62,709 nt of DNA from an uncultured bacterium (lineage in GTDB: Bacteria > Armatimonadota > HRBIN16): NCBI GenBank assembly GCA_938027655.1, contig CALJAP010000085.1, positions 1-62,709 on the forward strand, written 5' to 3'. The position numbers and the translations under genes were made by a program. The notes beneath the pieces are model-generated. The model saw only the letters and a program-made list of their open reading frames with translations, ran no database searches and was not told where the DNA came from. Shown in pieces: positions 1 to 57,312 of the stretch (its first letter is position 1; each line of letters begins with the position of its first letter).

Positions 1-3000
1 AACACCAGGTAGCGCAGGTCTTCGGGGCGCACGCGCAGGGTCTTCAGCTCGCGCGGGCTTTTGATGACGGGGCGCAGCCAGTCGGTTTCGATCTCGCCTT
101 GCCAGCCTGCGCCGTTCTTCACGCGCACGGTCGCGCCCGCCTTGCCCTGCATCACCTGCGCCACAGTGGCTTCGACTGGCTCCAGATAGAAAAACTCGTT
201 CGCGCCTGTGGTGAATCCGCGGCGTACCTCGGCGATGTGGCCCAACCGAACCAGCTTGCCCTTGCCCTTCTCCAGTACGGTGAAATAGATATCGGGCGCT
301 CGCAGATACTTACCGCCCCACTTGCTGCCCTCGTACGGTGCGTGTTGTAACAAGCCGTTCTGCTCTTCTTCCGTTGCTGCTGTCCCTTCGGCGTACAGGT
401 CGGCGTGCGTTCGGGCAATCAGGCGAAACTCTGGGCGCAGCAGTTGGTCGGTTGTCTCGTCGATCTCGATGAACACTACAGGAGAGAGCACTTCCTCGAA
501 GGGAACTCGAAACATGACAAAGCGGGCGATGCGAGAAGGGTCTACCTCTTTGTCCTCCGGCGGGGCAAGCAACACGATGACCGTGTTTACGTCCGCCTGC
601 GCAAACGACCGGCGTGCAGAATTGTCCAGAACCATTTTGATGTGACTGTGTTTGAGCAGGAACTCTTGCAGGTCTTTCCCGAAGCCCACGTCCAGCCACG
701 AATTGGAGGTGATGAAGCAGAACGAGCCTTTAGGATTAAGCAGGGACAAGCCGTGCAGGTAGAAGTAGACGTACAGGTCGTTGCGCTTGTCCCACTCACG
801 CGCAGGATTGCCCCTACGCTCTACCTGGGCGGGGTTATAGCCGAAGAAGCGGGGATAGGTAGTCCATAGCGAGCGTATCAACCTGTCTTTGTACTGTTGC
901 TTCTCATACCTCCCCAGCGGGTCTTTGATATTCTCCTGGCGTACGTAAGGCGGGTTACCGATAACGATATCGAAGCCTCCTTTCCCGCTCTCGAATATCT
1001 CCACGAAGGCGACATCCCAGACGAAGGGAACGGTCTGGGGCGAGGTAAGCGCTTTTAGTGCGCTGTCTATTCGTGCCTGCTCCGCCTGCTTCTGCTCCAA
1101 TTCCCGTCTCCACGCCTGTATCTGCTGCTGTTGAGCCGGCGACATGGTGGACGAGCCGTCCAGCGCCAGCTGCTGAGAAGCGGATTCAATCTGTCGTTCG
1201 AGGCCTTGCATCTGCTCGGTCAAGTAAAGCTTGCGATCCTGCATAATTTCGCGGAAAAGCTGTAGCTCTTCCTGTTTTAAACATTTTTCATCCAGTCCTT
1301 GCTCATTCTGGTAGAAGCGCAGCTTTTTGCCTTTCAACTGGGTGATTTTGCCCTTTAGTGAAGCGCGCAGGTCTACATGCTGTCGGTGCAGGTTGAAGTT
1401 CACGCCGCCCACCTCCTGCAGTAGGCTATCGCCGGGGCGCACTTTAAAAGTGAGGTTTGGCAGCAAGGGACGCACCCAGATCTCGCCCGGTTGCAGTTCC
1501 GTCTCCACCACCAGCTGCAGCCACAGACGCAGCTCCGCCACATGCACCGCCCAGTCCATCACGTCCACCCCGTACAGGCTCTCCCCAATGATGCGCCTCC
1601 TGCGTTCGTAGGCGGTCTCCTCGATGCCTAACTGGTAGTTAGCGCGCTCTATCAGGTCGTCCAGTACCAGTAACATCCCTACCAGAAAAGAGCCTGAACC
1701 GCACGCAGGGTCGCACACCGTGACCGACCGAAGGAGGTCGTGTAAGGATGCCCACAGATTGTGACGCGCAAGCAGTGCGTCGGCTTCCTGCTTCTCCTCC
1801 TGTTCGTAGGCAAAGACCGCCTGATAGAGCAGCTGCTTATGTTGCGCCCCCAGATGGTTGGTCAGATAGTCCACCAGGCTCAGTCGGCACATGAGGTCGA
1901 TCTCCACGCGGGGGGTGTAGAAGATACCCGCTTCACCGCGTCTGTCCTCATCAAAGGAGGAGGCATTTATCAAGCTCTCGTATACCTTGCCAATCATCTC
2001 GGGGTCTACCGCGACCTCCAGGTCGAAGGGGGTCGACTCGCTGATGGTGAAGTTGTAGCGTTCTAGAAAGCCAGGAGTGGAATCGGCGTACTTGTCGAAC
2101 AGTTGCTCGAAGAGTTCATCCGGGATTTTGACATCGAATTGGGTGTCGATGCGGTTTCTGGTGAAGAGTCCCCCGTTGAGGTAGGGCGCTACAGCTAGGG
2201 CGCTGCGTATATCTTCAGGCAGGTAAGCCCGGTAGGATGCTTCCGCTTGGAATCGGCGGTTGAACGCCTCGAAAAAGAGCACCGAGAGCCAATCCTCGTA
2301 GAAGCGATCTGGCTGGTCAGCCTGCCGTTTGTAGCTCTTCCAGAAGTGGCTAAGGAAGTCGGGGCGGTTGCCCAACCAATGTTTGCGTTGGATAAAGTAG
2401 AGAAACATCAGACGGTTAAGCAGTTGCAAGGCGTAATCGTGCGCCCACTGGGCATCGTTGTGCTGCTGTGTCAGCCGGCTTTGCAGACCAGTGAAGATAG
2501 CTCGATACCCCTCGAAGAATTGTTCGGTGACGGCTTGTACATCGAAGGCGCGGTTCAGTCGGTCGGTTACCTCCGTAACAGCAGGCTCACCGAAAAGACC
2601 TAGCGAGGCGACATCGAAGTGCAGCTCAGCAATACGTTCGACGGTGGTTCGTGCTGGCAACGCTGCGTGAAAAGAAAGAGTGCGTAGCTCGGCTTTACGC
2701 CCCTCTTTACCACGTCGCCTGGCCCACACAAACGCAATCTGATTCTGGTCCTCAGTGACGTAGCAAAGCAGGTGCTCGACATTGCGAGACGATAAAGCAC
2801 GGTACACAGCGCGCCGTTGCGTGAGTGTGGGTAACTGGCTGCCCCAAGGCACACGAAACACCGGTACCCCGCCCATCTCAGCGAGCGGTTCAAAGGAGAC
2901 TTCCCGTCCTACCGGAGAGGGCACTGTCAAAACAATCGGGTGAGACGAACTGGGCTTGCCCCAGCGAAGTATGTTGGTGAAAAGCGTGTGTAATGATTGG

Positions 3001-41665: not shown

Positions 41666-44305
41666 ATGTTAGCTCAGGAGTTACGCGAAAAATACCTGCG
41701 GTTCTTTGAGAGCAAAGGACACAGACGGTTTCCTTCAGATAGCCTTGTGCCCAACGACCCGTCGTTGCTGTTCACCAGCGCGGGCATGGTACAGTTCAAG
41801 CCCTACTTCCTCGGGCTGGCAACCCCGCCCCACACACGGGTCACAACGGTGCAGAAATGCCTGCGCACCACCGACATCGAGTCGGTGGGCGACCACTCGC
41901 ATCTCACCTTCTTCGAGATGCTGGGTAACTTCAGCTTCGGCGACTACTTCAAGCGCGAGGCTATCCTGTGGGCGTGGGAGTTCCTCACTGAGTGGCTGCA
42001 TATCTCACCTGACCGCCTGCGCGTTACCATCTACTTGGACGACGACGAGGCGTACGAGGTGTGGAATCGTGAGGTGGGCGTGCCCGACCGCAAAATCTTC
42101 CGCTTCGGTGAGAAGAGCAACTACTGGCCCGCCAACGCCATCTCGGAGGGTCCGAACGGTCCATGTGGTCCCTGTTCGGAAATCTTTTACGATACCCGTC
42201 CCGACCTGCCTCCCACCCCTGACGGTGTGTGGGACGACGTACGCTGGCTGGAAATCTGGAATCTGGTGTTTATGCAGTACGAACGGCACGACGGCGGCAG
42301 ACTCACCCCTCTGCCACGTAAGAATATCGACACGGGCATGGGGCTGGAACGCACCGCCGCCATCCTCGCGGGCAAGGCGAGCGTGTTCGATACCGACCTC
42401 TTTCAACCACTCATTGCGCGCATTGCCGACCTGAGCGGGCACGCCTACAGCGGTAGCGACTCCACAGAAGATGTTGCCTTCCGCCTGATTGCCGACCACA
42501 TCCGCGCTACCACCATGTCCATCGCCGACGGAGTGCTCCCCTCCAACGAGGGGCGTGGTTACGTGATACGGCGACTCCTGCGCCGGGCGATGCTGCGCGG
42601 GCAGAACGTACTGGGCTTTGACCGTCCCTTCCTCGCCGATGTGGCAACAGCGGTGATCGAAACGCTGGGCGAGGTGTATCCCGAGGTGCGCGAGCGACGC
42701 GATTATGTGCTGCGCACCATTCGCAGCGAGGAAGAACGCTTCCGCCAGACCATTCAGGTTGGTTCACAACGGCTGGCGGAGATGCTTGGGGCGTCCGAAG
42801 TGCAGAGGAGCAAGGTACTGCCCGGCGAGCAGGCGTTCATGCTATACGACACCTACGGTTTCCCCCTGGAGCTGACACAGGAGGTCGCCGCCGAGGCGGG
42901 TATCGGGGTCGATGTAGAGGGCTTCCGTCGGGCGATGGAGGAGCAGCGTCGGCGTGCTCGTGAAGCCAGCGGTATTGCCACACAGTTGTTCGCCATCGCG
43001 GGCGACGCTGCCACCGAACTGCAGAAAACGCTTCCGCCGACAAAGTTCCTGGGCTACCGGCAGCATGAGGCGGAAGCGAAGGTGCTCGCCATTATCCGGC
43101 AGGGAGAACCTGCCACTTTTGCCAGCGAGGGCGAAGAAGTGGAACTGGTGCTAGACCAGACCCCCTTCTACGCTGAGGCAGGCGGTCAGGTGGGCGACAC
43201 CGGATGGATACAGGGAAAAGACTTCCGGTTTGAAGTCAAAGATACCCAGAAGGTGGGCGACCTGTACCTGCACATCGGCATGGTGACGCGCGGACGTGTG
43301 GAGGTGGAAGCCCCCGTTTCCGCCCGCATCGACACGCAACGTCGCTGGCACATCATGCGCAACCACACCGCTACGCATTTGCTACATGCGGCGTTACGCC
43401 AGGTGCTGGGTTCGCATGTGCATCAAGCTGGTTCGCTGGTAGCACCCGACCGCCTGCGTTTCGACTTCACCCATACCAGCGCGATGAGCGAGGAGCAAAT
43501 CGCCGAGGTGGAACGTCTGGTGAACGAGCGTATCCTAGAAGACAAGCCGGTCATGGTACATTGGGACGTGCCGCTTGCGGAGGCGCGGGCGCGCGGCGCG
43601 ATGGCGCTGTTCGGGGAGAAGTACGGCGACACCGTGCGCATGATCGAGGTGCCCGGCGTGAGCCTGGAATTGTGCGGTGGCACGCATCTGGAACGCACCT
43701 CGCAGGTCGGGCTGTTCAAGATAGTGTCGGAGGAAAGTGTGGCGGCGGGCGTGCGCCGCGTCGAGGCGGTCACGGGTTGGGGCGCGTATCAGCTGATGCG
43801 CCAGCAACAGGAGCTGCTGGAGGAAGCGGCGGCGCGTCTGAAATGCGCGGTGTCCGACATCCCTGCGGCGATCGAACGTCTGCAGGCGCAGCGTCAGGAG
43901 ATGGAGAGGCAGATTCAGCAGCTACGCACCGGTGCGGCTGCCCGCTCCATGCAGTTCGAACCCGTCGAGCTGGCGGGGTTGCAAGTGGTTACCGGACGAG
44001 CCGACGGTGCAGACGCGCAGACGTTGGCTTCTCTGGCGGACCAGGCGGCACAGAAGGCATCAGTGGACCTGGTGGTGCTCGCTGCAGCAACCGACGGCAA
44101 GGCGCTGTTCGTGGCGAAGGCGAAACCCTCGGCGGTGGCAAAGGGGGTTCATGCCGGCAACCTGGTGCGCGAGCTGGCGAAAATCAGCGGGGGCGGCGGC
44201 GGCGGGCGTGCCGAGTTCGCTCAGGCAGGCGGGCGCGATGCTAGCAAAATCCCGCAAGCTTTGCAGCAGTTGCCCCTCCTGCTACAGCAGATGGTGGGAA
44301 GATAG
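41666..44305 (+). CDS. alaS: Alanine--tRNA ligase
   Basis: LLFTSAGMVQFK, FFEMLGNFSFGDYFK, IDTGMGLER, NHTATHLLH, ELCGGTH, GGGGG..AQAGG. Confidence 0.98.
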   Translation: MLAQELREKYLRFFESKGHRRFPSDSLVPNDPSLLFTSAGMVQFKPYFLGLATPPHTRVTTVQKCLRTTDIESVGDHSHLTFFEMLGNFSFGDYFKREAILWAWEFLTEWLHISPDRLRVTIYLDDDEAYEVWNREVGVPDRKIFRFGEKSNYWPANAISEGPNGPCGPCSEIFYDTRPDLPPTPDGVWDDVRWLEIWNLVFMQYERHDGGRLTPLPRKNIDTGMGLERTAAILAGKASVFDTDLFQPLIARIADLSGHAYSGSDSTEDVAFRLIADHIRATTMSIADGVLPSNEGRGYVIRRLLRRAMLRGQNVLGFDRPFLADVATAVIETLGEVYPEVRERRDYVLRTIRSEEERFRQTIQVGSQRLAEMLGASEVQRSKVLPGEQAFMLYDTYGFPLELTQEVAAEAGIGVDVEGFRRAMEEQRRRAREASGIATQLFAIAGDAATELQKTLPPTKFLGYRQHEAEAKVLAIIRQGEPATFASEGEEVELVLDQTPFYAEAGGQVGDTGWIQGKDFRFEVKDTQKVGDLYLHIGMVTRGRVEVEAPVSARIDTQRRWHIMRNHTATHLLHAALRQVLGSHVHQAGSLVAPDRLRFDFTHTSAMSEEQIAEVERLVNERILEDKPVMVHWDVPLAEARARGAMALFGEKYGDTVRMIEVPGVSLELCGGTHLERTSQVGLFKIVSEESVAAGVRRVEAVTGWGAYQLMRQQQELLEEAAARLKCAVSDIPAAIERLQAQRQEMERQIQQLRTGAAARSMQFEPVELAGLQVVTGRADGADAQTLASLADQAAQKASVDLVVLAAATDGKALFVAKAKPSAVAKGVHAGNLVRELAKISGGGGGGRAEFAQAGGRDASKIPQALQQLPLLLQQMVGR

Positions 44306-44353
44306 CAAAAATCGAAATGTTTTTTTGCTACAATCCTGCAAAAACCGCCTCAG

Positions 44354-44369
44354 TGGTACGATTCTTGCT
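44354..44369 (+). promoter_or_regulatory. sigma54 (-24/-12) promoter, copy 1
   Basis: TGGTACGATTCTTGCT fits TGGYAC-N5-TTGCW with exact GG-N10-GC spacing. Intergenic. Confidence 0.75.
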
Positions 44370-44379
44370 ATATATATGG

Positions 44380-44592
44380 AATGGAAACCCCGCAAGGCGG
44401 GGTGGGGTCAGGCACACCGCCGGTAACAATGACCGACGGTCTGTGCTGATAGGGCGCGAAAGCACTGGGTTTCGCGCCGGTGCGCCTGGACGCGCTTGGC
44501 GTCGGGCTGCGAAAGGGTGAAACATCACCCTTTCGCCTAACGGTGCACTCGCAATGCCGCCGGATGTTTCCATCCGGCGGTCTTCCCTTTTC
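44380..44592 (+). ncRNA. Candidate structured non-coding RNA (~210 nt), family not recognised
   Basis: Bounded by a sigma54 promoter and an intrinsic terminator. At least 5 hairpins, including perfect 9-bp (44453-44478) and 12-bp (44509-44536) stems. No credible ORF or RBS. Confidence 0.6.
44556..44592 (+). terminator. Rho-independent terminator
   Basis: GCCGCCGGATG-TTTC-CATCCGGCGGT followed by CTTCCCTTTTC. Confidence 0.75.
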
Positions 44593-45740
44593 TATACATG
44601 TACGTTGAACAGCACGCCGATTAGATAGGTCAACACACCCACCACAAAAGCGATGGCAGTCATCTCCAGCCCGCTGACCCACCACTTGCGCGTAGTCACC
44701 AGACTCTTAGCTGCCCCCACCGCGAAGTGCGCCAGCACGCTTACGAACGCCGACCAGAATACCGCCATCCACCCCCGTGCGAAGAAGAACGGCAGCACCG
44801 GTATCAACCCACCAACGGCAGTGGATACCATCGACGACAGAAGCGAGACCCACGGATTGGGGAAGCTGGCTTCGGATAGTCCCAGCTCCTCATGCGCCAT
44901 CAGGCGCAGCATCTGGTCAGGCTTCTCTGCCAGCCGACGCGCCATTGCCTCCGCTTCCTCTTCGGAAAAACCCTTGAGCTGGTAGAACAGGCTCATCTCC
45001 TCAATCTCTTCTTCCGGGTTCTCGTGAAGCTCTCCGCGCTCGCGGGCAAGCTCCGCCTCGTACACCTCACGCTCTGACTTCGCTGCCAGAAAGGCGCCGG
45101 AGCCCATCGATAGCGCGCTGGCCAAAGTGCCCACCAGCCCAGCAATCAGCACCGTCTGGTGTCCAGCCGCGCTGCCCGCGCTGTAGCCCGCCATACCGGA
45201 TACAATGCCGAATACCGCGCCTAACCCATCGTTGATGCCGTAGATGGCATCGCCTATCCACGAGCCGCCGCGCACGTGCCAGTGTTCCCGCCGCAGGATG
45301 CGCTCCACCGGATGCTCCGTGCCCGAGGCGGAGTACAAAGCGTGTGTCATGTGAGCATGTTCCTCTTCATCTCGCATCACCCGCTGCGCGAGTTCTGCGG
45401 TACGTTCGTCGCCCATGTGCTGCATCTGCAGGTAGCGTGCCACTGCCTCGTCTTCATGTTCCTCCATCCGTCGCAGCACCATCTCAGGGCTTGCCAGATA
45501 CGCCTGCCAGCCGAACAGCGGTTTCACCTTACGAACCTGCGGCGGTTTGCCTCCCAACTCTACCAGTCGCTGGCTCCACTCCTCTGCGTGGCGGTCTTCC
45601 ACTTGCGCCAGCTGCTCCAGTATCTTCTTTTTGCGCGGGTCTTTCTCGCGTTTCGCCAGCAGGCGGTAGGTCTCTGCGCTGGACAGCTCGCCCCGAATCA
45701 CCTCTTCAATTGAAGCCTTCAATTTTGCATCGGCACCCAT
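44592..45740 (-). CDS. Ferritin/rubrerythrin-like domain fused to VIT1/CCC1 metal transporter
   Basis: Start re-called at 45740 (AAGGAG). Di-iron ExxH motifs (EDRH, DEEEH). DAIYGINDGL, SALSMGSG.FL, HEELG VIT1 motifs. Confidence 0.88.
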   Translation of the reverse strand: MGADAKLKASIEEVIRGELSSAETYRLLAKREKDPRKKKILEQLAQVEDRHAEEWSQRLVELGGKPPQVRKVKPLFGWQAYLASPEMVLRRMEEHEDEAVARYLQMQHMGDERTAELAQRVMRDEEEHAHMTHALYSASGTEHPVERILRREHWHVRGGSWIGDAIYGINDGLGAVFGIVSGMAGYSAGSAAGHQTVLIAGLVGTLASALSMGSGAFLAAKSEREVYEAELARERGELHENPEEEIEEMSLFYQLKGFSEEEAEAMARRLAEKPDQMLRLMAHEELGLSEASFPNPWVSLLSSMVSTAVGGLIPVLPFFFARGWMAVFWSAFVSVLAHFAVGAAKSLVTTRKWWVSGLEMTAIAFVVGVLTYLIGVLFNVHV

Positions 45741-45761
45741 CGAACCGTCTTTTCTCCTTTT

Positions 45762-45780
45762 AATAATGATTCGCGTTATT
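45762..45780. promoter_or_regulatory. Fur-family operator-like site
   Basis: AATAATGATTCGCGTTATT matches GATAATGATAATCATTATC at 13/19 positions. It lies between the minus-strand TGxTATAAT (-10 at 45781-45786) and the RBS. Confidence 0.55.
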
Positions 45781-45837
45781 ATTATATCACATCCCCTGTG
45801 AAAAAGGGAACAGAGGATAGAAGAGTGGCTCTTTCTG

Positions 45838-45867
45838 TTGACAATCTCCTGTTTAAACCTGTACAAT
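45838..45867 (+). promoter_or_regulatory. sigma70-type promoter for the DUF2905-queA operon
   Basis: TTGACA-N18-TACAAT. Confidence 0.65.
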
Positions 45868-45891
45868 TTGCACGCAGGAGGATGAGAACAG

Positions 45892-46128
45892 ATGCTGGCA
45901 TCGTTTGGCAAAGGGTTGATTCTTCTCGGTGTGATGCTTGTCCTGCTCGGTGCGCTCATGTGGGCGATGGAGCGGTTCACCGGCGCACGGGGCGGTGGTT
46001 TGTTGCCCGGCGACCTCGTGTGGCGTAAAGGCAACTTCACTATCGGCATCTTTCTGGGAACCAGCATCGCCCTCAGCATCCTGCTAACGGTTATTCTCTG
46101 GGTGATTGGATGGTTGAGCAGACGATAG
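45892..46128 (+). CDS. DUF2905 family small membrane protein
   Basis: GKGLILLG...LPGDLVW.KGNFT...LGTSIALSILLT. Typical position upstream of queA. Confidence 0.85.
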   Translation: MLASFGKGLILLGVMLVLLGALMWAMERFTGARGGGLLPGDLVWRKGNFTIGIFLGTSIALSILLTVILWVIGWLSRR

Positions 46129-47144
46129 AAGAGGCAGTACGGCTGCTGGAAGAGTACCGTTACGACCTGCCGGAAGAGCGCATCGCGCAACAGCCGGTGG
46201 AGCCGCGCGATAGCTCGCGCTTGCTGGTGCTGCACCGTGACGCCGGCAGCCGCGAGCACCGCATCTTCCGCGACATTGTGCAATATCTCCACCCGGGCGA
46301 TACACTGGTACTGAACAACACGCGCGTGAGCGCGCGTCGCCTACGCGGTTTCAAGAGTACCGGCGCACAGGTAGAGGCATTGCTGCTGCGCGAGGTTCAA
46401 CCGGGTGTGTGGGAAGCGATTGTGCGCCCGGGCAGGCGATTGCTGGTGGGCAGTCAGGTGCTTCTGGAGGGACACCTGAGGGCGGAAGTGATTGCCTGTC
46501 TGCCACAGGGGATGCGCTTGCTACGCTTTGAGCACCCTCAGTTGGTACATCACCAGCCGCTGGGCGAGATACCGTTGCCCCCTTACATCCGGCACAAGCT
46601 GGAGAACGAGGAGCGTTATCAGACGGTATACGCAGCGGTTAACGGCTCGGCGGCAGCTCCGACAGCAGGGCTACATTTCACCCCGGAACTGCTACAACGC
46701 ATCCGCGAGATGGGCGTGCGTATCGTGACCATCACCCTGCACGTGGGTATCGCCACCTTCCGCCATCCCGAGCCAGAGCAGCTGGTGCAGGGACGCCTGC
46801 ACCCGGAGTGGTACACCATCTCCGAAGAAGCTGCCGAAGTCATCAACAGTACGCCCGGGCGTATCGTGGCGGTGGGCACAACCTGTGTGCGTGCGCTGGA
46901 GAGCGCGGCGTCAGGCGAACGGCGGGTAGAGGCACGGCACGGCAGCACCGACCTGTTCATTCTGCCGGGCTTCCGGTTCCGGGTTGTGGAAGCGCTCGTG
47001 ACGAACTTTCACCTGCCTGCTTCCACGCCGCTCTTGCTCACCTGCGCCTTCGCAGGCAAAGAAAGAGTTTTCGAAGCCTATCGCGAAGCGTTGGCGATGG
47101 GCTACCGATTCCTGAGTTTTGGAGACGCCATGCTGATACTTTAG
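46110..47144 (+). CDS. queA: S-adenosylmethionine:tRNA ribosyltransferase-isomerase
   Basis: LPEERIAQQP, PLPPYI, RYQTVYA, AAPTAGLHFT, TNFHLP, YRFLSFGDAM. Confidence 0.97.
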   Translation: MVEQTIEEAVRLLEEYRYDLPEERIAQQPVEPRDSSRLLVLHRDAGSREHRIFRDIVQYLHPGDTLVLNNTRVSARRLRGFKSTGAQVEALLLREVQPGVWEAIVRPGRRLLVGSQVLLEGHLRAEVIACLPQGMRLLRFEHPQLVHHQPLGEIPLPPYIRHKLENEERYQTVYAAVNGSAAAPTAGLHFTPELLQRIREMGVRIVTITLHVGIATFRHPEPEQLVQGRLHPEWYTISEEAAEVINSTPGRIVAVGTTCVRALESAASGERRVEARHGSTDLFILPGFRFRVVEALVTNFHLPASTPLLLTCAFAGKERVFEAYREALAMGYRFLSFGDAMLIL

Positions 47145-52188: not shown

Positions 52189-52227
52189 CACAGTGTGCAC
52201 CGTTCAGAAATAAGAAGGCTGATTGCG

Positions 52228-54873
52228 ATGGACAACCATTCGTATACTGTCGAGACGCATTACGCTTTTATCCAGCGGCTACTTCATCAGATTGCATCGC
52301 GCACGGCGGACGCGGTGAGTGAGGCGCTGCTGGCGGAGGCTCAACAGTACTTTGTCGCCGTGCAGGCAGCGTTGTGGACGGTAGACGCCAGTACACACCA
52401 GGCGGTGCTGGTGAGCGTTGCGCCTTACCCCTTCTCCGACGACCACCTGCCCTTCGATGTGCTCATGGAGGCGGTGACAAAAGCAGCAAAAAAGGACGGT
52501 CCCTGTTGCGTCGAGCTGGGTGAACGGTATGGGTGGTTGCATTCTTTCAAGATAGAGCCTTACCGCGCGGTGTACGTGGTTAGCCTTGTCACCGAGGAGC
52601 CTTTGCCGGAATGCTTGCAGGAGGTGCTGCAGACATGGCTCATTCTTCTGCGCACCTCGGTTGCGCAGCTGCAGGCGCAGGCTCACCTCCGCCGGGTGCA
52701 AAAGCACAACGATAAGCGTCTGCAGGAGGTCACCGCGCTCTACGAGATCGGGCAGGCGATGGAGGGTGGCGACCTGCAGGTTCTGCTGGACATGATTACC
52801 CGCAAAGCGGCAGAGGTCATGGAAGCACAGGCGTGCTCGCTGATGCTTCTGGATGAGGACGGTCAAACGCTGGTCATTCGCTCCAGCTACGGCTTACCTA
52901 ATACGGTTATCGAGCAAACGCGCGTGCCGTGGGGACAGGGGATTGCGGGCAGGGTGGTCGCCAGCGGTCAAGCCATGTTGATTACCGACCCGCGTAAAGA
53001 CCCTCGCCTCGCCGGTGAAGACGTGCCGTACCGCGAGGACATCCAGGCGTCGCTCTGTGTGCCGTTGCGGGACAGCCATGGCGGGGTAATTGGGGTACTG
53101 AATATCCATCGGCGCAAGCCTGCTCCACTCTTTACCCAGCAGGATATGCGCCTGTTTAGCGTGTTCGCCATGCAGGCGGCGTCCGTTATCAAGTACGCAC
53201 AGATCCGCCGTGCCCTCATGTATCGGGTGCATGAGCTTTCGGTACTCTCCGAACTGAGCGCGGCGGTAAACTCCACGCTGGAGCTGGAACAGATACTGCA
53301 GCAAACCGCAGAGGGCATTGTGGAAACCGTGCGGTTCGACCGCTGCGCGATATTTCTGCTGGACGAGTCGGGTAAGCTGGTAACGCCCCGCGCGGTGCGT
53401 GGTTATCGCCCCGAAACACTGGGTAGCACGCCGGTTCGCGTGGCGGACGGCGTCATCGGGTTAGCGGTACGCAATAAGGAGCTGGTGCTGGTAGAGAACG
53501 CCCAGCAATCCAGCCAGCCCGCGCGAGGGTTTGGCAGGATGCTGGGCACCAATGCGTTTCTGGTCGCGCCCATTCTGGCACGCAACCGCGTAATTGGAGT
53601 GGTGGTTGCCGACAACAAACCCTCCGGGCGCCCTATTGACCGTGCTAATATCCAGCTGCTCACCACCTTCATCAACCAGGCGGGCATGGCTATCGAGAAC
53701 GCCCGTCTGTATCACGACCTGGACCGGCGATTTAACGAACTGCATAACCTGTGGGAGTACACGCGCAACCTGCTCAGCAGCATTGGTGTGGGCGTTGTGA
53801 GCATCGATAGAGAGGAGATTGTACTGACCTGGAACGATGCCGCCGAACGCATCACCACTGTACCTCACGAGAAAGCGCTGGGATACAAACTGGAGGACCT
53901 GTTTGCCCACTTTTTCCTGCCGGAAGAAGAGAAGAACATGCTTCTGGAGATTATCCGCTTCCCCTTCCAGACGGGCGAAAGACACTCGCGTTTCAAATGT
54001 GCTCTGCATCCCTATCAGCGCGGTGAGATGTACTTCAATTTTGAAAGTTCTCCCCTGCGTGCTCCCAACGGTTCCGTTCAGGGTGTGGTGTTTATTTTTG
54101 AAGACATCACGCACGAAGTGCGGATGGAGATGGAGGTGCAGCGCATCGGGCAGCTGGCAGCGGTTGGGCAGCTCGCCTCTACCATCGCCCACGAGTTGCG
54201 CAACCCGCTCAGCTCCATCCGTGCTTCCGCCCAGCACCTGCGCGGCGAATACGCCAGCAACCCCGAGCTGTGTGAGTTTCTGGACATTATCATCAACGAG
54301 GTGGATGTGCTGAACACCAAAGCCACCGAGTTCCTGCGGTTCGCCCGTCCTGTGGAACCGGTATTCCAGGAGGTGAACCTGTCCGACCTGATGAGCAGTA
54401 CCGTCCAGTTCATGCACTCCTATATCGAGGAGCAGGGGGTGCAGGTGGAGGTGGACGTTTCCGTGCCGTTTACCATCAAGGCGGACCCAAACCAGCTGAA
54501 AGAAGCTCTTCGCAATCTGATTATCAACGCGGTGCAAGCCATGCCGGAAGGTGGAACCTTGTCGCTTATCGCCACACCCGCCCCAGGCGACACGGTAAAT
54601 ATTATCGTCAAGGACACGGGAGTTGGGATACCGCCCGAAAATATGGACCGTATCTTTACGCCGTTTTACACTACCAAAGCCAAAGGGTCGGGGCTGGGGC
54701 TGGCAAACGTCCAGAAGATTGTGGAAAGCCACGGCGGTACTATTCGCGTGCACAGCCGGGTGGGTGAAGGAACCGAGATGCGTATCACTCTGCCGGTGCA
54801 CCCGGTGCGTCGCATCCGCCGCATTGAGCTGGGAGACGATGACAATCTGCGCACCAGAATACCAGACCTCTAA
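52228..54873 (+). CDS. Cytoplasmic GAF-GAF-PAS sensor histidine kinase (NtrB/AtoS-like)
   Basis: Two GAF repeats, PAS (WNDAAERIT), H-box AHELRNPL, N/G/F boxes NLIINAVQA, DTGVGI, FTPFYTTK, GSGLGL. No obvious TM helix. Confidence 0.92.
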   Translation: MDNHSYTVETHYAFIQRLLHQIASRTADAVSEALLAEAQQYFVAVQAALWTVDASTHQAVLVSVAPYPFSDDHLPFDVLMEAVTKAAKKDGPCCVELGERYGWLHSFKIEPYRAVYVVSLVTEEPLPECLQEVLQTWLILLRTSVAQLQAQAHLRRVQKHNDKRLQEVTALYEIGQAMEGGDLQVLLDMITRKAAEVMEAQACSLMLLDEDGQTLVIRSSYGLPNTVIEQTRVPWGQGIAGRVVASGQAMLITDPRKDPRLAGEDVPYREDIQASLCVPLRDSHGGVIGVLNIHRRKPAPLFTQQDMRLFSVFAMQAASVIKYAQIRRALMYRVHELSVLSELSAAVNSTLELEQILQQTAEGIVETVRFDRCAIFLLDESGKLVTPRAVRGYRPETLGSTPVRVADGVIGLAVRNKELVLVENAQQSSQPARGFGRMLGTNAFLVAPILARNRVIGVVVADNKPSGRPIDRANIQLLTTFINQAGMAIENARLYHDLDRRFNELHNLWEYTRNLLSSIGVGVVSIDREEIVLTWNDAAERITTVPHEKALGYKLEDLFAHFFLPEEEKNMLLEIIRFPFQTGERHSRFKCALHPYQRGEMYFNFESSPLRAPNGSVQGVVFIFEDITHEVRMEMEVQRIGQLAAVGQLASTIAHELRNPLSSIRASAQHLRGEYASNPELCEFLDIIINEVDVLNTKATEFLRFARPVEPVFQEVNLSDLMSSTVQFMHSYIEEQGVQVEVDVSVPFTIKADPNQLKEALRNLIINAVQAMPEGGTLSLIATPAPGDTVNIIVKDTGVGIPPENMDRIFTPFYTTKAKGSGLGLANVQKIVESHGGTIRVHSRVGEGTEMRITLPVHPVRRIRRIELGDDDNLRTRIPDL

Positions 54874-54901: not shown

Positions 54902-56122
54902 ATGACAATGAAGGTAAAAACAGCGACAGAGAAACCAACACCGTTGACCCTGCTTATCGTGGAAGACCAGGCCAGTCACCGTCGTGTACTGGAGGCGCAC
55001 TTCTCTAAGCAATACGATGTGCTCACCGCCGAGCACGGTCAGCGTGCGCTGGAAATCGCTTCACAGCGGCCTGTTGACCTGTTGATTGTCGATCTGATTC
55101 TGCCCGGTGCGATGAACGGAATGGAGGTGCTGCAAAAGATTCGCGAGATGTATCCGGACGTAATGGCTATCATGATTACCGCGCATCCTACCGTTCGCAC
55201 AGCGGTACAGGCGATGAAAGATGGCGCGATAGACTATATCGAAAAGCCTATCGACCTAGACGAGCTGAAAACAATGGTGGACAGAGCAGCCGAGCAGTAT
55301 CGCCGCAAGCAGGAGGAAGCTCTACTCCAGCCTCAACACAGCGGCACTCTCGATCTGCAAGGTATTGTGGGCACCAGCGAGGCGATGCAGAAAGTGTATA
55401 GGATGATTGCGAAGGTCGCGGCGAGTAATGCAACCGTACTGATTCGCGGTGAAAGCGGTACCGGAAAGGAGCTGGTCGCCAAAGCCATTCATCGCAATAG
55501 CAATCGGGCGAACGGGCCGTTTATCGCCGTGTCCTGCGCCGCGCTACCGGAGACCTTGCTCGAAAGCGAGCTGTTCGGGCACGAGAGGAACGCTTTCACC
55601 GGCGCAACGTCACAAAAGCCGGGCCGGTTCGAACTGGCACACAAGGGCACCCTGTTCCTTGATGAAGTGGCAGAGATTAGTCCTGCTATTCAGGTGAAAT
55701 TGCTGCGCGTGCTGCAGGAACAAGAGTTCGAGCGGCTGGGTGGCACCAAGCCGATTAAAGTGGATGTACGCCTGCTCGCCGCCACGAACAAAAACCTAAA
55801 GGAGATGGTGAACAACAAAACCTTCCGCGATGACCTGTACTATCGCCTGCACGTCATCGAGATTTACCTGCCTCCCTTGCGCGAACGAACGGAAGACATT
55901 CCGCTTCTGGTGGAACACTTTCTGAATCATTACGGCAGGGAGAACGGCAAACGGCTCAAATCCGTTGCCCCCGAAGCGATGCACATCTTGAGGAACTACC
56001 ACTGGCCCGGCAACGTGCGCGAGCTGGAAAACGTCATCGAACGGGCGGTTGTGCTCGCTGACAGAGACACAGAACTGCTTACGCCCGACCTCTTGCCGGA
56101 TTCTATCACCAAGACAGTGTAA
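54902..56122 (+). CDS. sigma54-dependent response regulator (REC + AAA+), lacking the C-terminal Fis-type HTH
   Basis: REC (IVED, D, T, KP), GESGTGKE, ESELFGH, NAFTGA, LFLDEV, FRDDLYYRL, WPGNVRELEN. Stop 21 aa after ERAVVL. 406 aa. Confidence 0.92.
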   Translation: MTMKVKTATEKPTPLTLLIVEDQASHRRVLEAHFSKQYDVLTAEHGQRALEIASQRPVDLLIVDLILPGAMNGMEVLQKIREMYPDVMAIMITAHPTVRTAVQAMKDGAIDYIEKPIDLDELKTMVDRAAEQYRRKQEEALLQPQHSGTLDLQGIVGTSEAMQKVYRMIAKVAASNATVLIRGESGTGKELVAKAIHRNSNRANGPFIAVSCAALPETLLESELFGHERNAFTGATSQKPGRFELAHKGTLFLDEVAEISPAIQVKLLRVLQEQEFERLGGTKPIKVDVRLLAATNKNLKEMVNNKTFRDDLYYRLHVIEIYLPPLRERTEDIPLLVEHFLNHYGRENGKRLKSVAPEAMHILRNYHWPGNVRELENVIERAVVLADRDTELLTPDLLPDSITKTV

Positions 56123-56165
56123 ATCGCTTAGATTTTTTTGCAAATACCGGCAAAAACGCGCCGAA

Positions 56166-56181
56166 TGGTACGGAACTTGCA
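56166..56181 (+). promoter_or_regulatory. sigma54 (-24/-12) promoter, copy 2
   Basis: TGGTACGGAACTTGCA fits TGGYAC-N5-TTGCW. Lies directly downstream of the activator gene and upstream of the REC-PilZ gene. Confidence 0.8.
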
Positions 56182-56298
56182 GCTATATATGGACGGATAT
56201 GCTTTTGCAAGGATACCTGTTAAGAATGCAGGAATTGTATATTATCCTTAAAATCGCAACAGATGCCTGGTCCATGCTGAAAGGGGAAGTCTGATCCC

Positions 56299-57312
56299 AT
56301 GCCCAGAGTGCTGATAGCGGACGATGAGACGAACCTGTGTAAGGTGCTGGCTGCAAGGTTGCAGCAAAGTGGATTGCAGTGCGTGATTGCGCATGACGGT
56401 ATGCAGGCGCTGGAACTCCTCCGCTCACAACCCATCGATGTGGCGGTGCTGGACGTACGGCTCCCGCGCAAGAACGGTGTGCAGATACTGCGCGAAATCC
56501 GGCGAGACAATCCGCAGCTCCCTTGCGTGCTCATCACTGCTTTCGAGGACATCGAGTTACACGAGGAAGCGGCGCGTCTGAGAGCGAATGCTGTTTTGCA
56601 GAAGCCGTTTGACCTGGAAGCGTTCACCGAGCTTATCTGGAGGGAGATCAGCGCCCCTGCCTCCACGACGGGAGCGCCCATGCTGCTGCAGAACGGCGAG
56701 AAGGTGATTGTGGACATCCGGCGAGGCGAGTGGTCGTATACCTATGCACCGCGCGTCATTTCGCAAGACGACCGCATACTGGAGATCGAACCGCCGCTGG
56801 CAGTAGTGGATACAGAGGTGTTGTCGCAAGGGGTAGCTATTGTTCAGTTTACGCGTGGGGATGGCGTATACCAGTTTCGTTCGCGCATCGAGTTGGCTAC
56901 CACTCCCCGACAAGCGTTGTATCTGCGCAAGCCGGTCGCCATTCGTCGCCTGCAACGCCGCAAGCACCCACGCATTGCGGAAGAGGGACAGGTCAGCATC
57001 GTGTTTTCGTTCCGGGAGGAACGTGAGGCTGCTCCACTGACGCTTACGGGCGAACTGTACGACCTGAGTCACGGTGGTTTCTCCGTGTTGTTGTCGCAGG
57101 CGCCGCCCGTTGGCGAAGAGGTCTCCTTCCAGATGGCGCTACCCGAGGCAAACCTTACCCTCATCGGGCAAGCGCGGGTGGTGCATGTGGGCGGGATGAT
57201 TGCCGACAGGGTACCGGCGGTTTATCACGCAGGGCTGAGGTTCACCCGACTCGCGCCCGCCATGCGGCAAGCACTGGCGGAATGGGTGGAGAGGCTGTTG
57301 AAACAGGCGTGA
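56299..57312 (+). CDS. Response regulator receiver fused to YcgR-like PilZN + PilZ c-di-GMP-binding domains
   Basis: REC (IADDE, LDVRLP, ITA, QKP). PilZ motifs QRRKHPR (RxxxR) and DLSHGG (DxSxxG), GLRF. Confidence 0.85.
   Translation: MPRVLIADDETNLCKVLAARLQQSGLQCVIAHDGMQALELLRSQPIDVAVLDVRLPRKNGVQILREIRRDNPQLPCVLITAFEDIELHEEAARLRANAVLQKPFDLEAFTELIWREISAPASTTGAPMLLQNGEKVIVDIRRGEWSYTYAPRVISQDDRILEIEPPLAVVDTEVLSQGVAIVQFTRGDGVYQFRSRIELATTPRQALYLRKPVAIRRLQRRKHPRIAEEGQVSIVFSFREEREAAPLTLTGELYDLSHGGFSVLLSQAPPVGEEVSFQMALPEANLTLIGQARVVHVGGMIADRVPAVYHAGLRFTRLAPAMRQALAEWVERLLKQA

Follow-up and report, generated by a model that had tools for sequence, protein, structure and literature searches.

A conserved, structured small RNA with a sigma-54-type promoter downstream of alaS in an uncultured genus of Armatimonadota

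The 62,709-nt contig CALJAP010000085.1 of assembly GCA_938027655.1 (Armatimonadota; HRBIN16), hereafter the window, carries between alaS and a convergent ferritin-like/VIT1 gene an element that is very probably an independently transcribed, non-coding and highly structured small RNA of ~210 nt, encoded on the plus strand from ~44380 to ~44590. The window is contig C85 of its own genome (G000), an assembly of 3.5 Mb in 219 contigs that is 99% complete. The gene, its structure, its conservation, its promoter motif and, by way of a common module, its membership of a regulon are established by computation. The RNA is a new family of a known kind, the sigma-54 small RNA. It is probably made from the sigma-54 promoter of a genus-wide module, in a set of units that would switch on with a single kinase/activator pair. 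To our knowledge, gene regulation in Armatimonadota is almost unstudied, and this genus is known only from metagenomes.

Structure, conservation and distribution of the RNA

The gap between alaS and the VIT1 gene measures 286 nt and contains the promoter, the paired RNA and an intrinsic terminator (Table 1). An earlier prediction for this gap had listed a promoter, a series of stems and a terminator, all of which are present in the sequence. It had also described ~210 nt as almost wholly base-paired, and folding bears this out: the minimum free energy is -117.9 kcal/mol compared with -85.7 +/- 4.5 for 200 shuffles (z = -7.2), none of which folded as well. The minus strand folds about equally well (z = -8.0), and folding energy alone therefore cannot assign the strand. 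We identify the plus strand as the RNA because conserved G-U pairs, such as U118-G137 (18 of 18 sequences), would turn into C-A mismatches if the minus strand were the RNA. Across the homologues, neither strand keeps a reading frame. As originally proposed, the RNA is not a 5' leader, since the next gene is convergent and none lies downstream on the RNA's strand.

Comparative analysis revealed extensive compensatory change. A consensus structure obtained with RNAalifold from 12 genus sequences comprises 68 pairs, 26 of which show double compensatory changes. In the 18 distinct sequences on which pair statistics were computed, 26 of the 68 pairs likewise show such changes and 95.0% of pair cells are paired, the latter compared with 90.1% in shuffles and 37-53% when partners are slid by 1-3 columns, and five structure measures all exceed 500 of 500 shuffles. 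Covariation is found in P1 and P2, along the body of helix Pc and at the top of the terminator stem. Within the genus, helices Pa and Pb are invariant, as are the base of Pc and the CUAACG strand of the junction. P3 is absent from one species (G007), and a further helix drawn by RNAalifold (44404-07/44585-88) shows no double changes.

The alternative folds that had been suggested for this RNA can be drawn for the present sequence, but they fared less well than its stems on comparison with homologues. The long-range pairing 44409-44418/44479-44488 is formed in 79% of cells, a value matched by 126 of 500 shuffles, and GTGCT/AGCAC in 56%; neither shows covariation. The complementarity between the 5' segment ATGGAAAC and the terminator loop is not conserved. 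That loop (44566-44571) is inverted among close relatives, reading GTTTCC here and GGAAAC in the two closest (G008 and G003) on the same stem, which looks like a hairpin-tip inversion.

The RNA is restricted, as far as searched, to one genus of uncultivated Armatimonadota. BLAST detected one full-length copy in its own genome and one in 11 of the 12 other genus genomes, always directly after alaS; the genome without it is 77% complete. No match was found by BLAST in 28 other genomes. A covariance model (R1) likewise found one copy per genome in the genus and none in five genomes of two sister genera, in which alaS is followed directly by protein genes. Across 151 genomes of the phylum, R1 gave weak matches (<=32 bits) in 18 non-genus genomes; we rejected these as homologues, as the loci read, in 10 of these genomes, were all terminators of other genes (CCGCCGG...CCGGCGG followed by a T-run) without a sigma-54 motif. 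Exact-pattern scans yielded 8 loci in the genome collection and 14 in metagenomes, bringing the total to 34 sequences, 18 of them distinct. The six distinct sequences added in this way all have the promoter and the end of alaS upstream, and one (L088) has a different downstream neighbour.

The original prediction had called the RNA novel, and searches for a known family agree. Rfam 15, whose families include Qrr, GlmY/GlmZ, CrcZ, 6S, tmRNA, RNase P, SRP and the riboswitches, gave no match in the region when the whole window was searched at gathering score. At E <= 10 the region returned only terminator-level noise, the best sub-threshold match (16.7 bits) covering the terminator only. For five divergent homologue loci searched at E <= 5, no family recurred on the RNA (ar14, for example, scored 24.3 against a required 58.8 bits, in one homologue only). 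Searches for literature on small RNAs of Armatimonadota/HRBIN16 and of the exosortase system found, within the papers and topics covered, no description of this RNA. A repeat or miniature inverted-repeat transposable element (MITE), against which the prediction was to be checked, is not indicated either, each genome holding one full-length copy and no dispersed ones. This work thus adds a well-supported new RNA family of narrow distribution, namely one genus.

A hint of expression comes from a metatranscriptome library that contained one 163-nt contig (depth 5.4) lying wholly inside a relative's copy of the RNA. In this contig, 78 nt match 44470-44547 with two differences, and the preceding 81 nt resemble the P2/P3 region of a relative. 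One hot-spring DNA run and one other run contain relatives that are ~92% alike.

Table 1. Positions of the RNA gene, its promoter module and associated genes; coordinates are those of the window unless a contig is named.
Feature	Position	Strand	Description
alaS	41666-44305	+	Pfam tRNA-synt_2c
A-tract/T-tract inverted repeat	44305-44330	+	GCAAAAATCGAAATGTTTTTTTGC; upstream element of the promoter module; starts at the alaS stop codon
Conserved upstream stretch	44337-44353	+	GCAAAAACCGCCTCAG; directly upstream of -24; module consensus gCAaAAACccC; kept in homologues
RNA gene with promoter	44354-44592	+	near-consensus -24/-12 promoter, ~210 nt of almost fully paired RNA, intrinsic terminator
Sigma-54-type -24/-12 promoter	44354-44369	+	TGGTACGATTCTTGCT
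TATATA melting region and start	44370-44386	+	predicted start ~44379-44381, then GGAATGGAAA, an initial transcribed motif common to the regulon promoters
P1 hairpin	44388-44402	+	CCCCGC/GCGGGG (ACCCCGC/GCGGGGT, 44387-44403); double changes in 4/6 pairs
P2 long interrupted hairpin	44411-44447	+	double changes in 9/15 pairs
P3 hairpin	44453-44478	+	GGCGCGAAA/TTTCGCGCC (GGCGCGA/TCGCGCC); double changes in 2/7 pairs
Three-way junction core	44480-44546	+	helices Pa, Pb and Pc with junction strand
Pa closing helix	44480-83 with 44543-46	+	GUGC with GUGC; sole variation is from G-U to A-U or C-G
Pb	44484-44507	+	bulged G; contains GACGC/GCGTC (44489-44503); 5/10 pairs never vary
Pc (12-bp stem)	44509-44536	+	double changes in 7/11 pairs
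Junction strand	44537-42	+	CUAACG; invariant in the genus
Single-stranded linker	44547-44555	+	ACUCGCAAU; moderately conserved; AYUCGC in most sequences
Intrinsic terminator	44556-44592	+	hairpin 44556-44581; 11-bp GC-rich stem, double compensatory changes in 3/11 pairs; T-rich tail TCTTCCCTTTTC; abuts the VIT1 stop codon
Ferritin-like/VIT1 fusion gene	44592-46292	-	Pfam; converges on the RNA
Sensor histidine kinase	52228-54873	+	GAF-GAF-PAS-HisKA-HATPase (Pfam); soluble-type; presumed regulon input
Response regulator	54923-56122	+	receiver, AAA+ domain, lid; no helix-turn-helix (HTH); only true sigma-54 activator of the genome
Receiver-PilZ gene	56299-57312		regulon unit; promoter at 56166
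Second sigma-54 small RNA	G000:C43 ~8369 to 8125 (locus L063 2620-2900)	-	between a GFO/IDH/MocA oxidoreductase gene and rhaA

A genus-wide sigma-54-type promoter module and its presumed single activator

The promoter of the RNA has a single mismatch to the consensus TGGCAC-N5-TTGC, with the GG and GC elements at canonical spacing. The motif TGGYACGNNNNTTGCW occurs twice in the window, where 0.02 occurrences are expected, and none of 100 shuffles reached two. All 18 distinct homologues (12 genus sequences and 6 further metagenome sequences) retain the -24/-12 element, and the genome encodes one rpoN (115 bits), so the call of a sigma-54-type promoter in the original prediction stands. The start given in Table 1 was placed by the usual spacing between -12 and +1. 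No sigma-70-like promoter was found in 44000-45000.

BLAST searches revealed that the first ~47 nt of the query, which belong to the promoter module, recur elsewhere in the genome, and that the remainder is single-copy. The common module spans ~100 nt and consists of an A/T inverted repeat (~-75 to -50), GCAAAAACCCC, TGGTACGAtTCTTGCA, TATATA and a GGTGGAAA-like transcript start. Its core motif is found 19 times in the genome compared with ~4 expected; 15 of these occurrences are intergenic, face a gene and have the same flanking module, including the inverted repeat at ~-75 to -50. Two such sites lie in the window (44305-44386 and 56120-56200) and 13 elsewhere in the genome.

The units behind these promoters include three proteins with PEP-CTERM-type ends (one above cut-off for TIGR02595 at 23.7 bits, two with PEP-CTERM-like C-termini), an exosortase (TIGR02602, 172.7 bits, above cut-off), a PEP-CTERM-system exopolysaccharide (EPS) export protein (150.9 bits, below the cut-off of 180), an H-X9-DG pilin-like protein, a choice-of-anchor B protein, an RHS-core protein, large secreted proteins, a cold-shock protein assigned from its N-terminal sequence only, the receiver-PilZ protein and, on contig C43, a second unit that is non-coding. 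The receiver-PilZ gene has its sigma-54 promoter directly behind the activator gene, an arrangement that suggests a link to cyclic di-GMP and a feed-forward step in the regulon.

We next consider what could activate this module. A search with PF00158 returned one strong match (251.5 bits), the next four scoring 24-32 bits and including a Mg-chelatase-like ATPase. The strong match is the response regulator at 54.9-56.1 kb, whose protein ends two residues past the AAA lid and has no DNA-binding domain. Its NCBIfam alignments to AtoC, NtrC and PrsR, all below cut-off, stop at ~375-392 of models that are 445-469 long, ~70 short of the end. Of 13 genus genomes, 12 encode exactly one such protein, in open frames that span 406-507 aa. 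With a single sigma-54 and a single activator available, all sigma-54 promoters of the genus, that of the RNA included, would depend on this kinase/activator pair. The original prediction had assigned the RNA to the same pair, and we infer likewise, on the ground that the pair contains the only true sigma-54 activator of the genome, which is a stronger ground than proximity. Among the 10 other genus genomes with both the RNA and the kinase, 7 have the kinase on the RNA's contig, ~7 kb away; in G009, G001 and G004 it is on another contig.

Activators without a DNA-binding domain have precedents: in the passages of Francke 2011 (PMC3162934) used here, FlgR of Helicobacter/Campylobacter and CtcC of Chlamydia are enhancer-independent proteins of this type. 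Like them, the present regulator consists of a receiver and an AAA+ domain and is the sole or nearly sole sigma-54 activator of its genome. It differs from FlgR and CtcC, as described there, in its phylum, in its NAFTGA loop and in its regulon, which comprises surface/EPS genes and small RNAs, not flagella or late chlamydial genes. The module keeps its inverted repeat even though the sole activator has no DNA-binding domain; candidate roles for the repeat are bending, an IHF-like or UP-like site, or the site of a regulator.

In the sister genera (G013-G017), rpoN is missing from three of three genomes of one genus, two of them single-contig, and present in both genomes of the other. Sigma-54 is thus patchy within the family. 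The sigma-54 motif was not above chance in these two genera.

Possible action of the RNA and rival explanations

In the mechanism that we propose, the GAF-GAF-PAS kinase (52.2-54.9 kb) would phosphorylate the activator, which would work from solution in the manner of the enhancer-independent FlgR and CtcC, and ~15 module-bearing units, this RNA included, would switch on together. The RNA would form the post-transcriptional arm of a cell-surface/biofilm programme, acting in trans through a protein or small ligand bound at the invariant junction (44480-44546), as a decoy, scaffold or sensor. Overall we favour this reading, a sigma-54-module small RNA that acts through its junction in the surface programme, tentatively and with slightly less than even confidence. 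Its weakest step is the binding role of the junction, which may well be wrong and which we nevertheless rank above action through a short linear seed. Binding is favoured because the RNA is mostly paired, because conservation peaks in Pa, Pb and the junction, and because the peripheral stems covary or are dispensable. An invariant junction with a variable periphery is typical of RNAs whose three-dimensional shape a protein or ligand recognises. A more specific version, in which the junction is a dedicated recognition domain for a protein or small molecule and the RNA a free-standing sensor or decoy feeding back on the sigma-54 PEP-CTERM/exosortase programme, is speculative and on balance doubtful.

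Several points weigh against the favoured reading. The loop with which the activator would contact sigma-54 is NAFTGA rather than the canonical GAFTGA, and its function as an activator is predicted. All sequences come from one genus, so that relatedness inflates the shuffle statistics; moreover, the pattern used for the six extra sequences forces two invariant blocks, and the unbiased test of invariance is that on the 12 genus genomes found by BLAST or model. The 163-nt contig may be DNA carry-over, contigs of this kind show neither ends nor strand, and missing cover of the flanks in that library carries no weight. Because alaS lacks a separate terminator, some of the RNA pool may represent alaS 3' untranslated region (UTR) made independently of sigma-54. 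The protein or ligand partner of the junction is hypothetical, and Pa and Pb might just as well be invariant because they unfold into an extended base-pairing surface. Finally, the genome encodes both Hfq and CsrA, which makes classical seed pairing possible.

Such pairing is how the sigma-54 small RNAs Qrr, GlmZ and NfiS act. A classical Hfq-assisted RNA would use the partly unpaired CUAACGGUG/ACUCGCAAU region (44537-44555) or the UGGGGUCA junction as a seed for surface/lifestyle mRNAs, and the terminator hairpin with its U-rich tail, the presence of Hfq and the invariance of CGCCUAACGGUGCA in 12 genus genomes all fit this explanation. We nonetheless consider it rather unlikely, since little of the RNA is single-stranded and the majority of the invariant bases lie inside helices. 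The leader of a pilin-like gene (G000:C26) contains an 11-nt complement in three of nine orthologous leaders and 8 bp in four more; in the other two genomes only 5 bp match, there is no co-variation, some 45 nt separate the site from the start codon and no other gene carries the motif, so we keep it as a weak lead only. A feedback target in the kinase 5' UTR (GTGCACCGTT at 52195 against AACGGUGCAC) was rejected, being found among 11 aligned genomes only in this one and partly in the two closest relatives. Genome-wide, exact complements of at least 10 nt to 44531-44556 numbered ~45 and lay mostly within coding regions, and scanning 3960 crude start regions for duplex energy yielded nothing but uninformative, long GC-driven duplexes. 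No conserved complementary target was found in these searches. We also rejected a CsrA sponge of the CsrB/RsmZ type: by inspection, GGA occurs in the shared 5' leader, the Pb helix and the terminator stem, without GGA repeats in loops.

Three further explanations carry less weight. The RNA could be a cis-acting element of the alaS 3' UTR that stabilises or terminates the message, with the promoter-like motif adding little transcription. It does lie directly behind alaS on the same strand in 18 of 18 distinct sequences, and the only plus-strand terminator downstream of alaS is that of the RNA, with none in between, so that alaS transcripts probably end there too. Still, the full module (inverted repeat, -24/-12 and TATATA) is intact, as at 14 other units, the sister genera have alaS without such an element, and a simple terminator has no need of five covarying helices and an invariant junction; we therefore judge this improbable. 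Even less probable is a regulator of the ferritin-like/VIT1 gene by antisense or convergent transcription. The two genes converge and abut, and because the terminator hairpin has no following T-run on the minus strand, VIT1 transcripts could run into the antisense of the RNA. There is, however, no overlap with the VIT1 coding region, one homologue (L088) keeps the RNA next to different downstream sequence, and covariation preserves an RNA fold that antisense action does not require. That the element is no RNA gene at all, but a repeat or MITE, a small protein gene or a chance cluster of GC-rich palindromes, is hardly credible: the minus strand folds as well and the promoter part recurs in the genome, yet there is a single full-length copy per genome, no conserved frame, and a record of compensatory changes and conserved G-U pairs.

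Two of the genes mentioned above have features of their own. The VIT1 gene encodes a fusion of the transporter with a ferritin-like/rubrerythrin domain; its listed frame has 566 aa, of which ~190 N-terminal residues have no domain match, and the true start may sit further in. For the H-X9-DG pilin-like gene on C26 (~1100-1240, minus strand; locus L120), both a sigma-70 promoter and the leader, GTAACTAAC..CGTTATAGAA, are conserved; in this genome the leader is nearly a palindrome, and it may serve as an operator. The C26 query matched over 40 paralogous pilin N-termini in each genome.

Related systems and further small RNAs

Small RNAs under joint control of sigma-54 and a two-component system include GlmY/GlmZ (GlrKR), Vibrio Qrr (LuxO) and Pseudomonas CrcZ (CbrAB). 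The present RNA shares with them a stand-alone gene, a -24/-12 promoter, an intrinsic terminator and a presumed role as output of a kinase and an NtrC-type activator, and here too, as for Qrr and GlmY/Z, a genome carries more than one gene of this sort (the second being on C43). It belongs to none of these families, because Rfam returned no match to them, and it is more fully paired, with an invariant three-way junction and, by inspection, no repeated GGA or CA-rich loop motifs. In contrast to those systems, the genome has a single activator, which lacks a DNA-binding domain. The sigma-54 dependence of GlmY is stated in the part of PMC3162934 used here.

The regulon also resembles a described protein-sorting system. 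In the sections of Haft et al. 2006 (PMC1569441) on which we draw, a two-part upstream motif with a sigma-54 site, the "PEP-CTERM box," precedes PEP-CTERM genes in Proteobacteria. The module described here and this PrsK/PrsR/PrsT regulon, as presented there, have in common a two-part module with a sigma-54 site, an exosortase, EPS export genes and one kinase/regulator pair. The proteins differ: the regulator scores 414.7 bits against a cut-off of 502.6 for PrsR (TIGR02915), aligning over 1-374 of 445 and without the Fis-type HTH, and the kinase, a soluble-type GAF-GAF-PAS protein, scores 104 against 300 bits for PrsK (TIGR02916). The phylum is also another one, and those sections of Haft et al. 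(PMC1569441) do not mention RNA genes as members of the regulon.

Two other comparisons concern the RNA gene itself. It resembles orphan structured RNAs in its length of ~200 nt, its covarying multi-helix fold, its conserved junction nucleotides and its own promoter and terminator. One of these, the raiA motif, is an orphan structured bacterial RNA from comparative genomics; compared with it, the present RNA has a far narrower distribution and a defined regulatory input, the sigma-54 module. Another is a ~205-nt structured RNA beside aspS in the same genome (C21; locus L064 ~600-940, minus strand), whose sequence is unrelated to that of the alaS-adjacent RNA; no sigma-54 motif was found on its contig. 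MicL and DapZ are small RNAs located in 3' UTRs that have their own promoter and share the terminator of the mRNA. The alaS-adjacent RNA likewise lies behind a coding gene on the same strand, with its own alternative-sigma promoter and only the terminator in common, and differs in that its promoter follows the stop codon instead of lying within the coding region.

These findings offer a testable picture with a single sigma-54, a single activator that lacks a DNA-binding domain, one promoter module, and a surface regulon (PEP-CTERM, exosortase, EPS and pilin) together with two small RNAs. The PEP-CTERM sorting system is widespread and poorly understood. Should the RNA be a post-transcriptional arm of the regulon, PEP-CTERM sorting would be tied to RNA-based control, and the junction would be a handle for finding the partner. 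Should it act as a sensor or decoy, it would be the first RNA component described for the PEP-CTERM/exosortase sorting system. It and the second small RNA would then be the two-RNA output layer of a global switch in Armatimonadota that has one sigma-54 and one activator, the latter lacking a DNA-binding domain.

The second sigma-54 small RNA lies behind the same promoter module. Its 5' domain is variable, its core, GCACUGCUGGUUCUACGC...GACGCCGCAG, is conserved, and its terminator loop is rich in C. It was extracted from 12 genus genomes, all of which keep the core and terminator and 10 of which have the promoter motif upstream, and it looks like a more ordinary base-pairing RNA. Pairing between the two sigma-54 small RNAs was rejected, as by eye a 7-8-nt match is found in the closest relatives only and is absent in G009. 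A further sigma-54 module lies on the minus strand of contig C197 (from 6035 of the reverse strand), followed by ~170 nt without a reading frame and then a sigma-70-like promoter (TTGACA..TACAAT). Two relatives (L016 and L026) keep this arrangement, and the unit may represent either a third RNA or else a long leader.

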